From: a virus
Taxonomy: Duplodnaviria; Caudoviricetes
Strand: one strand, 5' to 3'
Virus record (IMG/VR): IMGVR_UViG_3300020045_002525
Location: 1 to 34,928 of that record
DNA: 34,928 nucleotides
This document shows, piece after piece, positions 31,636-34,844 of this stretch (its first letter is position 1; each line of letters starts with the position of its first letter). The notes under the pieces were generated by a model. The model made no database searches and was not told the origin of the DNA. It worked only from the letters and a program-made list of their open reading frames with translations. The position numbers were made by a program, and so were the translations under genes.

Positions 31636-33672
31636 TTACTCAATCATTTGAGCGAACTCCTCAAACGTTAATCTACTGTACTTACTATCCGAACGTCTTA
31701 AAATATCAATGTAGATTTCTTTGGCCGCCAAATTATAAACACAAACATCGAAAAAGTGATTCTCAATACTTGTGCTTTTCTTTTTCCAAACAAAACCAAC
31801 CTCAACTCCATCTTTCTCCAATGGAACTCTTTTCTCAGCTTCTAAATGGTTAAAATAACCTCGCATCGTATATTTACCTTGTTCTGGTTGTGGAAAATTC
31901 ATAAATCCACTCGGTTGATAACCATCCATTCCCATCCTTGACTTAATATTTGAAGCCAAAATATCCTTTAATTGGTTGACTTGAAGTATAAACAATTTAC
32001 CATAATTCTCTCTTGAACGGCTAATAATAGGAGTGTCTTTTGAAACTTTTCTATATTCATCCTCAGCATAACCTTTTATACCAACAATAAAAGGATTATT
32101 CTCATTTTGAATAAATTCATAAGCTAATCTTGTAAAATGCCCCGTATCAATAACAGTAATATCAATTCCATACAAATCACCACTTTGAGAATTTAAACCA
32201 GCATTAATAATTCTTTGAAGTTCGCCCCAAACACTAAATTTTTGACCGTGAGAATAAGTCCATTTATCTCTATCAGTATCATCAATTTGCTCCGATTTGC
32301 TTTTTTTCCTACCTCTTTTGAATGTTCCTATTGAACCATGATTAATATGATAAGTTACACCAGTACTAGAATGCGCTATTATTTCCCAATCCAATCTAAC
32401 ATCCTCAATTTCATCATTCATAATACCACCTAAATCGCAAGCCATAGTAATCAATACTATTTTTCCATTTCCATCATCTTGACAAGTATTATCTGGAACA
32501 ACACCAATACCATAGCTTCGAGTATTATTCATTAAATCGCTAACTTTTACAGTTGTGCCTTTATCCTCCCAAGTTTGTCCTAATTGAGTATTTACAAACG
32601 CTTTCAATTTCCCATCATCTATAAATCCACCAGGAGGACAAGCATCCAACCATTTATAAACTAAATCTATCCATGAAGTAAATCCAGGAGGAATAACAAT
32701 TGCATTTAATTGGTAACTTCTAAATTGTGGACGTTTAGGAATTGCGGTCCCAATCCATTTGCCTTTTAAATTATGAAGTTGTTTATCTTTTTCTAAAATC
32801 TTACCTCCGCAATTTTGACATTCATAATGAACACTCTCTGGAATTAATTCAGATTTGTCATTTAGTTCCCATTTAATACCGGCATAAGTTCCATCCTCTT
32901 TTTTAATTTGCCACTCAATAGGAATATATTCTTTACAACTCGGACAATTCCAATGCCATTTACGCTGGTCCCCTAAATTATAAACCTCCTCAATATTTGA
33001 GGTCTGTTTAATCGCTGGAGTTGAAATATAAAATAACTTTTTCATAGATCCAAAAGATGTAGCTCTGTTTTCCATCAAAGAACGAACTGAACCCTCCTTT
33101 TTGTCATTACGCGGTGCAGATTCCCAATCATCAGCAAATATGTTTTTAACAGAATATTGCCTCCATTTGTTTGGATTATTAACACCTAATGCAGTTAATG
33201 AACCTCCAGCAAACTCCTTACTGAAATCAGTATCTCCAGTTCTTTGGTTTTTCTTTTTTACAACATTTGGACGTATTAAATGTGATAATCCCGAATTATT
33301 TAAAACGGGATCCAATCTTGTACGAATAGAAAGTTTTACAAGTTCAACATCTGCAGCAGTATATAATATTGGAGCTGGAATTTCTGAAATAATATAAGCT
33401 ATTCCTGGAATAATTACACCTTGAGTAAATCCACTCTGAGCACATTTCATAACCGCTACCATTTCTACTGGGCTTGTAGTACTCAAACAATCTACAACCT
33501 CACGAGTATAAGGCGAAATATCATATTTAAAATAACCAGTATATCTCGAAATATCAGAGGTTAAATAAATGTTTTTCTCTATCCACACACTTGGTAAATC
33601 TTTTATAATTTTAAAGTTATAAATTGATTCATGTATTTTGTTGTAAGATTTTTTAAAGAATTCTTTTAACAT
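31636..33672 (-). CDS. terL: Terminase large subunit (lambda gpA family)
   Basis: SPY.RE, KCAQSGFT (Walker A variant), ISTP, GDQR.W..CPSC, YECQNC, FVNTQLGQTW, IDTG, NHFFD...Y. Confidence 0.95.
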   Translation of the reverse strand: MLKEFFKKSYNKIHESIYNFKIIKDLPSVWIEKNIYLTSDISRYTGYFKYDISPYTREVVDCLSTTSPVEMVAVMKCAQSGFTQGVIIPGIAYIISEIPAPILYTAADVELVKLSIRTRLDPVLNNSGLSHLIRPNVVKKKNQRTGDTDFSKEFAGGSLTALGVNNPNKWRQYSVKNIFADDWESAPRNDKKEGSVRSLMENRATSFGSMKKLFYISTPAIKQTSNIEEVYNLGDQRKWHWNCPSCKEYIPIEWQIKKEDGTYAGIKWELNDKSELIPESVHYECQNCGGKILEKDKQLHNLKGKWIGTAIPKRPQFRSYQLNAIVIPPGFTSWIDLVYKWLDACPPGGFIDDGKLKAFVNTQLGQTWEDKGTTVKVSDLMNNTRSYGIGVVPDNTCQDDGNGKIVLITMACDLGGIMNDEIEDVRLDWEIIAHSSTGVTYHINHGSIGTFKRGRKKSKSEQIDDTDRDKWTYSHGQKFSVWGELQRIINAGLNSQSGDLYGIDITVIDTGHFTRLAYEFIQNENNPFIVGIKGYAEDEYRKVSKDTPIISRSRENYGKLFILQVNQLKDILASNIKSRMGMDGYQPSGFMNFPQPEQGKYTMRGYFNHLEAEKRVPLEKDGVEVGFVWKKKSTSIENHFFDVCVYNLAAKEIYIDILRRSDSKYSRLTFEEFAQMIE

Positions 33673-33954: not shown

Positions 33955-34167
33955 TTAAATTTCAATTGTTCCATTACTAAACGGACAATAATTCTTTTTA
34001 GGTTTAGGTATTAAATCCGAATATTCTCTTTTAATTTTTTCACTAATTGCATCACGAATAAATTTTGCTACATTTATTTGATAACTATCCAATTTTTGTA
34101 AAGTATTATGTTGCAATTCCGTAATTTTTACAACTTTTACCTTAGTGTATTTTAAAGGCTTTCCCAT
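33955..34167 (-). CDS. Ribbon-helix-helix-like DNA-binding protein
   Basis: Alternating strand KVKVVKIT, helix ELQHNTLQKL, second helix VAKFIRDAISEKI. Confidence 0.6.
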   Translation of the reverse strand: MGKPLKYTKVKVVKITELQHNTLQKLDSYQINVAKFIRDAISEKIKREYSDLIPKPKKNYCPFSNGTIEI

Positions 34168-34202
34168 AAATAAGTAATACTTTTATTTCGTATATAAAGA
34201 AG

Positions 34203-34589
34203 TTATGCGCAACTCAAATCGACTACGCTAATAATATCCTGCTTGACATATTGGTCTGTAATTATATTTGGCATACTGTGGAAATTTTCAAAGCGAATAT
34301 GAACTTCATCTTGTGCTATCAAAATCGGGTATCTAATACTTCCAGCAACCTTTGCAAATTTCCCTTTTATAATATTTCCGCTTTTATGAATATACAATCC
34401 ATCAAATTTGCTATTCTTTGCAATTAAGCAAGTCTTTCCGCTATAAATTGACCTCATATCATCAAGCGTGCAATTTTCTCTTTTATAACGCTTCACTACT
34501 AATGTAAATGAGCAGCGCATAACAGCACCTACCAAAAAGGCTGGGCTTTCGGCTTCGTTAGAAGCATTTGTGGTTAAATTATCATTCAT
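34203..34589 (-). CDS. Cassette-borne hypothetical protein
   Basis: 128 aa; the first ~25 codons derive from the attC; the TAA stop is the complement of the TTA in the core site. Confidence 0.65.
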   Translation of the reverse strand: MNDNLTTNASNEAESPAFLVGAVMRCSFTLVVKRYKRENCTLDDMRSIYSGKTCLIAKNSKFDGLYIHKSGNIIKGKFAKVAGSIRYPILIAQDEVHIRFENFHSMPNIITDQYVKQDIISVVDLSCA

Positions 34590-34643
34590 TTTTCTAAATT
34601 TATTTTATGGTTAAAATCCCGCCCTTCTGGTAGCTGCCAATCG
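34203..34643 (+). mobile_element. Integron-type gene cassette (441 bp)
   Basis: Begins G|TTATGCGC (34202-34210). Its R'' GCGCATAAC (34515-34523) is the exact reverse complement and is followed by an attC-like hairpin ending at G|TTATCAC (34643). Confidence 0.7.
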
Positions 34644-34650
34644 TTATCAC
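34515..34650 (+). repeat. attC-like recombination site
   Basis: AAC...GTT ends; arms GCACCTACCAAAAAGGCTGGGCTTT (34525-34549) and AAATCCCGCCCTTCTGGTAGCTGC (34614-34637) pair at 20/24 positions with one bulged base. Confidence 0.75.
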
Positions 34651-34844
34651 TCAGCTTTTAGAAAATCGTTACAATTCCGAAAATAACCACCACAATCGAA
34701 ATGATTATTTGTTTTTGGAGTTTGAAACAATACTCTTTTACCTAATTTACATTTTGCGTTTACCAATACTTTTGAAAATAAATTGTCTTTTTCTTTTTGT
34801 ATTGGATTAATAAAGTTTTTGCATTCATTGCATTCTACTCTCAT
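34647..34844 (-). CDS. Small Cys-rich protein (possible Zn binding)
   Basis: CNECKNF...C...C..F; ends TGA TAA C at the attC core. Confidence 0.65.
   Translation of the reverse strand: MRVECNECKNFINPIQKEKDNLFSKVLVNAKCKLGKRVLFQTPKTNNHFDCGGYFRNCNDFLKAE

Follow-up and report, generated by a model that had tools for sequence, protein, structure and literature searches.

An integron-like gene cassette upstream of terL in a Caudoviricetes phage, probably inserted by a Xer-like recombinase

A probable phage cassette at an attI-like site

A 441-bp unit upstream of the terminase large subunit gene (terL) of a Caudoviricetes phage is likely a gene cassette seated at an attI-like site, where it would have been inserted by a borrowed Xer-like tyrosine recombinase of Bacteroidota and not by the integron integrase IntI. 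The window, i.e., the whole stretch of 34,928 nt analysed here (IMG/VR record IMGVR_UViG_3300020045_002525), is an entire linear viral contig of 34.9 kb that is about 70% complete. Its minus strand carries nearly all long ORFs, and terminase and portal are of the lambda type. The cassette locus lies 530 nt upstream of terL (Table 1), and the right contig end is reached 280 nt beyond the hairpin that closes the unit. Because the gene downstream of the locus matches Flavobacterium phage 6H and nine kin records, and the hairpin family described below occurs mostly in Bacteroidota genomes, a Bacteroidota host appears probable. At the left end of the contig (1-1420), two glycosyltransferase ORFs (PF00535, PF00534) have a GC content of 43-47%, compared with about 30% elsewhere, and a 332-aa ORF is different in character beyond its first 23 residues or so, near 1410; this region is possibly an assembly chimera or a host junction.

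Table 1. Positions of the features of the cassette locus and its surroundings in the window.
Feature	Position	Strand	Basis
Terminase large subunit gene (terL), context	31636..33672	-	PF05876, PF20454
Gene for a 70-aa ribbon-helix-helix-like (RHH) protein, phrog_25647	33958..34167	-	Atlas RHH_1 cluster 0.91, lead only
attI-like docking arm: GTAATAC motif, L-box-like CGTATATA (34189-34196), 5-nt spacer	34174..34201	+	Profile rank; 10-mer shared with L120
Leading core GTTATGCGC; on the minus strand, last residues and stop codon of the cargo gene	34202..34210	+	Sequence match
Cassette, 441 bp: inverted gene and hairpin between two G|TT crossover points	34203..34643	.	Recurrence in L075, L076, X1, X4
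Cargo gene, 128 aa: 23 hairpin-coded residues and a 105-aa, mostly beta domain	34203..34589	-	Homologues, alignment, model
Inner core GCGCATAAC, R''-like, complementary to the leading core; on the minus strand, cargo Met24	34515..34523	+	
attC-like hairpin TAAC...GTTA; core-stem spacers of 5 nt and 1 nt	34520..34646	-	Fold z, R1 score
GTTATCACTCAGCTT, probable end core of the previous cassette	34643..34657	+	Same 15 nt end a 520-bp cassette in L074
65-aa upstream gene	34647..34844	-	No hairpin in homologue loci

Recurrence and boundaries of the unit

A preliminary description of this DNA had placed the leading core at 34202-34210, its exact reverse complement at 34515-34523 and a further GTT at 34643, and all three were found; the leading core is complementary to the cassette's own inner core at 9/9 positions. 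As stand-alone evidence this inverted match was rejected, since the window holds 17 GTT-initiated 9-bp inverted pairs spaced 100-1500 bp apart and the match is not beyond chance. The case therefore rests on the hairpin and on relatives of the unit.

A search with the cargo protein led to 15 viral loci. Two of these phage loci, L075 and L076, contain hairpin and gene together, with 93.5% identity over window positions 34648-34202 and 91.3% identity over 34646-34202, respectively, and are flanked on both sides by hairpins or genes unlike those of the window. In 12 of the 15 (some of them duplicates) the hairpin occurs alone, 89-95% identical and heading other genes, with identity ending at 34516-34520, and in one, L077, the cargo gene occurs without the hairpin. 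The unit also recurs in sequencing runs, where a contig of run X1 spans 34191-34647 of the window and a 427-nt contig of run X4 (covering 34202-34627) ends at 34202. This recurrence in viral loci and runs indicates that the hairpin travels with the gene it heads and that crossover is fixed at the cores, in the leading core most plausibly at G|TT. A mobile cassette with G|TT crossover had been proposed from the sequence of the window, and the exact ends in L075 and L076 bear this out; the suggested comparison with related phages likewise placed breakpoints at the cores, in these ends and in the divergence of the two terL relatives discussed below. In L078-L089, near-identical copies of the hairpin stand before unrelated genes and cease to match at the inner core; they could be a trace of cassette creation or re-heading.

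The same description had called for a search for further attC sites, which was answered in part: GTTATCACTCAGCTT, judged by its counterpart in L074, is probably the end core of a previous cassette, and the window itself holds one hairpin only. The 65-aa upstream gene was considered as a cassette gene and rejected, a hairpin being present in 0/16 homologue loci; its identity to locus L333 stops at 34663. A repeat search within the window gave no second cassette copy. No joint removing 34203-34643 was seen in four sequencing runs searched as contigs, and a joint in X4 from 34623 to 34202, considered as a circle, has an arm of another hairpin between its ends and was read as a different neighbour. 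None of the listed sequencing runs held more than 7% of the window's words, and no RNA run was listed. Neither the runs nor an exact search for the window docking site in metagenome contigs (0 found) yielded a circle or empty site of the window phage.

The cargo gene

The cargo is the sole long ORF between the cores. It starts at 34589 inside the hairpin, with a possible alternative start at 34520, and stops on the TAA of the far TAAC core. Its position on the minus strand, a point absent from the preliminary description, is the reverse of a classical cassette. Among 91 matches to the protein, 40 homologues had E<=4e-29; many start at a Met within the core, and several have different hairpin-coded leaders. 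The structure model is mostly beta (pLDDT 93). Searches assigned the protein to no Pfam, PHROG or convincing PADLOC family, and Foldseek gave nothing at E<=0.001. A bactofilin identity (best Atlas score 0.85, at low recognition) was not accepted, nor was a fold proposed by VIA (best Z 3.9). From its position and the methyltransferase genes in similar arrays, one might guess at an accessory gene for host interaction. A scan for sigma-70 promoters gave results at or below chance.

An attC-like hairpin and its family

Folding of 34520-34646 on the minus strand gave -20.1 kcal/mol (z -3.52) with 0/200 shuffles as good, compared with -13.4 (z -0.96) and 34/200 shuffles on the plus strand, in agreement with the better bottom-strand folding claimed earlier. 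The two A.C mismatches said to turn into G.T pairs on that strand do so. The palindrome with one bulged base, T34542, was recovered as described, but a recount from the sequence gave 21/24 paired stem positions instead of 20/24. In L075, L076 and contigs of runs X1, X2 and X4, position 34542 is a paired G, so the bulge is private and not a conserved extrahelical base. With a model built from 74 relative hairpins, window excluded (R1), the minus strand of the hairpin scored 74.9 bits, compared with 12.1 for the plus strand; the next site reached 14.2, making the hairpin the sole strong match in 34.9 kb.

Hairpins of this kind form a large family. A motif scan gave 61 viral loci, and a pairing detector picked out 203 hairpins (one of them in the window) from 395 kb of partly motif-chosen DNA and 0 from one block shuffle. 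Stem cells were paired in 93.4% of cases, compared with 65.3% after shuffling and 35-48% after sliding, and 15/16 stem pairs change on both sides in the hairpin alignment, which was chosen by pairing score and hence leans towards structure. The three inner core pairs are invariant in 74/74 relatives. In 88/106 relative cassettes, the leading core and the far-end core agree at 4 or 5 of the 5 variable bases (8/106 for a control core). The longer core-side spacer sits on the 5' arm of the folded strand, and in 131/151 relative hairpins the better-folding strand is the one in which the long spacer comes first. The two spacers differ by 3 or 4 nt in 139/176 hairpins from protein-picked loci, and by 4 nt in the window; for attCaadA7, the oligonucleotide given in PMC9892861 has a near-symmetric central spacer of 6 and 5 nt. 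Within the family the 16-pair stem is gapless on the R''-L'' arm and has no conserved extrahelical base. The site had been described as a complete canonical attC with an extrahelical base, a claim that found no support, given the spacer offset and the missing conserved bulge.

Among cultured phages, Polaribacter phage P12002L (L329, 29150-39250) has six R1 matches at E<0.003, several of its hairpins heading DNA methyltransferase genes, and Flavobacterium phage 6H (L090, 2934-7000) has seven hairpins upstream of the same RHH-like gene as in the window. Several annotated genes near the 6H hairpins look mis-called, two of them on the opposite strand. Host genomes contain at least 121 loci with such hairpins (about 270 stretches estimated). 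Genes are inverted in 75/85 viral cassettes and in classical orientation in 59/75 host cassettes.

A start codon lies within the hairpin in 59/179 viral cassettes. This, together with a folding strand that is the mRNA-like one and near-identical hairpins before unrelated genes in 12 loci, would suit a hairpin that acts chiefly in RNA, as a terminator or translation leader, and whose copies spread it by homologous recombination with one another. We regard such an element as very improbable, as it leaves unexplained why cores hundreds of bases apart are complementary in a cassette-specific way, why genes in hosts point the other way and why a recombinase and docking site lie alongside; an Rfam search of the window sequence also gave no match at E<=1.

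The docking site upstream of terL

A phage-side docking site upstream of terL, as previously proposed, was supported by a profile of 27 distinct terminal sites beside phage recombinases (leave-one-out range -8.7 to 14.4), on which the window site ranks first of 665 YAAC sites at 7.7 bits. The array thus ends at a TAAC-N5-TATA(T/C)A docking site. At the host site in L120 the 10-mer of the window recurs, likewise 5 nt from GTT. For seven distinct host recombinase genes (eleven recombinase ORFs in all at host loci, one from a duplicate locus and one incomplete), a docking GTT lies 48-122 nt after the stop and matches the far core of the first cassette. Inverted repeats overlap or adjoin the L-box-like motif before the host docking sites of L099, L112, L117, L130 and L156.

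The two closest terL relatives, L001 and L002 (85-86% identical to the window's terL), have a docking TAAC about 395 nt before terL, with profile scores of 8.2 and 6.9. Between L001 and L002, 293/300 nt agree after this TAAC and only 12/40 before it, as expected if different cassettes occupy a site equivalent to that of the window. In the first 460 nt of L001 and L002, the docking site is followed by a different small gene, which implies that the gene in the recombinase position was replaced more than once.

In the window this position, where relatives have their recombinase, is taken by the 70-aa gene, which starts 35 nt from the docking core and whose product, judged from its sequence and, as a lead, from cluster assignment, looks like a ribbon-helix-helix regulator. 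Among relatives of this gene, 6/8 viral loci have arrays in which the last cassette core matches the docking core at 9 or 10 of 10 positions, the remaining two being too short for the comparison. The strict terminal motif is present in 14/20 metagenome loci (4 of 24 were left out as short, duplicate or weak), and the terminal core matches the last detected hairpin in 3/6 testable metagenome loci and mismatches it in the other 3/6. Against this, nine other phages have docking-like sites ahead of the same gene with profile scores of just -14.5 to 0.9, which points to possible decay of such sites. The shared GTAATAC motif could also serve as an operator for the small protein instead of as a recombinase site.

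The locus could accordingly be seen as a frozen relic, in which cassette end, cassette, docking site and RHH-like gene were acquired as one block from a phage with an array, through homologous or illegitimate recombination, and are no longer exchanged. Such a history bears on whether the site is active now and does not conflict with a cassette origin. It would fit the truncated core fused to a non-cassette gene on the right, the single cassette in a contig without recombinase, the private mismatch in the hairpin and the occurrence of the RHH-like gene with its site in unrelated gene contexts. We consider it unlikely, though worth keeping in view: in 6/6 viral loci of sufficient length, the last cassettes at RHH-linked sites differ from one another and have matching cores, this site fits the active-type profile better than any other in the window, and the terL relatives differ exactly at the core.

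Xer-like recombinases near the arrays

The contig was correctly described as having no recombinase, a search with PF00589 being empty. Being about 70% complete, it could have one in its missing part; the complete 38-kb phage G003 carries the same cassette without such a recombinase. The gene is present in 73/121 genomes of the family of Flavobacterium denitrificans, and the recombinase family in 36/81 genomes of the order of Petrimonas. Given its absence from contig and G003 and its presence in 73/121 candidate host genomes, supply in trans from a host or co-infecting phage is plausible.

A recombinase profile search gave 80 viral loci, 4 of them without a readable ORF. Inverted hairpin arrays lie upstream of the gene, mostly of about 266 aa, in 48 of the other 76, and end 32-53 nt before its start in most resolved cases; 26/76 loci, many of them incomplete, have no hairpin. 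Hairpins fell inside a 1.5-kb flank in only 8/29 and 4/28 recombinase loci. Three cultured phages, Polaribacter phages Freya_10 and Leef_1 and Cellulophaga phage Ingeline_1 (L330-L332), have an annotated 'integrase' of this family whose start is preceded at about 45-50 nt by a TAAC terminal-type site, and Freya_10 and Leef_1 also have hairpins upstream of it. These genes may encode cassette recombinases, not lysogeny integrases.

The recombinases near such arrays, in hosts and phages, are Xer-like and lack the IntI-specific insertion. Fifteen of them (nine from host loci, six from phages) scored 150-217 bits with TIGR02249, below the cutoff of 265. The L156 recombinase aligned to VchIntIA (2a3v) in two pieces, with a gap of 20 residues in the query and 62 in the structure, i.e., it lacks about 40 residues relative to VchIntIA, and aligned to archaeal XerA in one piece; a phage recombinase aligned to 2a3v in the same split form. 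In a tree whose rows were picked with the same profile, IntI left out, host and phage array recombinases cluster together, separate from two further Xer-like paralogues in one host (99/99), and 16/19 phage array recombinases fall in one branch (99/96).

These enzymes argue against host IntI, the enzyme favoured in the preliminary description, and likewise against a classical integron cassette with a canonical attC, inserted by host IntI at a secondary GTT or attG-type site. We judge the latter improbable. It would readily explain the TAAC/GTT cores, better bottom-strand folding and self-complementary ends; IntI1 integrates five phage-borne sites in the assays reported in PMC9892861, and recombination is possible at sites without extrahelical bases as described in PMC2727003. 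It does not account for the spacer offset in 139/176 hairpins, the missing conserved bulge, neighbouring recombinases without the IntI insertion, or a left site that is the docking site of the family. Qi et al. (2023) described attC-like sites in phages without integrase and, in the sections concerned, treated them as IntI substrates; of six phage sites assayed with IntI1, only attC1 of P12002L failed (PMC9892861). This site is a member of the hairpin family by R1 match (26.7 bits, E 0.0015) and has the spacer offset, whereas attC2 of P12002L, which was integrated by IntI1 according to the same account (PMC9892861), is by sequence the terminal docking-type site of the array. The failure of attC1 thus hints, as far as one short site can, away from IntI.

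Proposed mechanism and wider reading

In the mechanism we favour, a recombinase borrowed from the host or a co-infecting phage would act on the minus strand folded into the hairpin, by analogy with integrons, and cut it at AA|C (G|TT at 34643 on the plus strand). One strand would be exchanged with the double-stranded docking site at G|TT 34202, and replication would resolve the product. Excision would release a 441-bp circle whose two cores pair perfectly. The inverted gene is co-directional with all phage genes of the window, so that it would be read from an upstream phage promoter, with a leader and probably a start codon supplied by the hairpin. In contrast to an integron, incoming cassettes would be added at the transcript's downstream end.

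A broader proposal, about which we are evenly divided, is that this is a second, phylum-wide cassette system based on folded DNA and parallel to integrons. Its Xer-like enzyme would read the spacer bulge and not an extrahelical base, and phages would run their own pool of reversed polarity, making cassettes of ordinary phage genes by heading them with a start-codon hairpin; phages like that of the window would have swapped the recombinase for a small regulator, keeping a live docking site served in trans.

If the mechanism is true, Bacteroidota and their phages have an integron-like gene capture that falls outside integron definitions resting on the IntI insertion. Phages would then run it in reverse, exchanging accessory genes that include those for DNA methyltransferases (P12002L). 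The handling of a folded single strand by a tyrosine recombinase without that insertion would become testable, as would the origin of cassettes, since the same hairpin heads unrelated genes and the cargo occurs without it in L077. A literature search covering open-access papers gave no account of the inverted phage form or of the pairing of recombinase and hairpin.

Comparison with known systems

In XerC/D-dif and pdif systems, Xer enzymes act on the AT-rich core of a 28-bp double-stranded site. The arrays resemble these in having a Xer-like enzyme and an AT-rich core site, and differ from them in the hairpin with its long variable loop, compensatory changes and strand asymmetry; the array recombinases also group apart from the two other Xer-like paralogues of one host.

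Likeness to integrons, as defined in PMC4889954 and PMC2727003, extends to GTT/AAC cores, a folded bottom strand, self-complementary cassette ends and a single docking site at the array end. The phage recombinase gene, where carried, lies on the opposite strand and is oriented away from the docking site, like intI. In contrast to attC as outlined in PMC2727003, the family has no conserved extrahelical base; it has a spacer offset of 3-4 nt and a recombinase without the IntI-specific insertion. Phage genes are inverted and often start in the hairpin, whereas a classical gene points towards its own attC. The window contains no IntI with an insertion near patch III, which defines a complete integron, and with one hairpin, compared with the two or more attC sites required, it is not a CALIN. 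On the features compared, the unit thus falls outside canonical attC, integron and CALIN, and works like a cassette at attI. Phage CALINs are similar in having attC-like sites and no integrase, and the P12002L array of PMC9892861 belongs to the same hairpin family.

The nearest published host form, set beside our arrays by description, appears to be the rAID-1 cluster of Bacteroidales, in which a XerD-family recombinase precedes genes of the same direction, with repeats 'reminiscent of integrons' (Ross et al., bioRxiv 10.1101/471110). As defined in the preprint text, the 5' XerD-like recombinase is >44% identical to BF9343_RS08045. The described layout (bioRxiv 10.1101/471110) is that of the host arrays found here, whose gene direction also fits. 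As far as the preprint's description goes (bioRxiv 10.1101/471110), rAID-1 clusters differ in being chromosomal with immunity cargo, and no phage form or folded-site model is given. The phage locus of the window lacks the two or more co-directional low-GC genes that follow the rAID-1 recombinase; it is a minimal case, in which both sites are present with exact ends.
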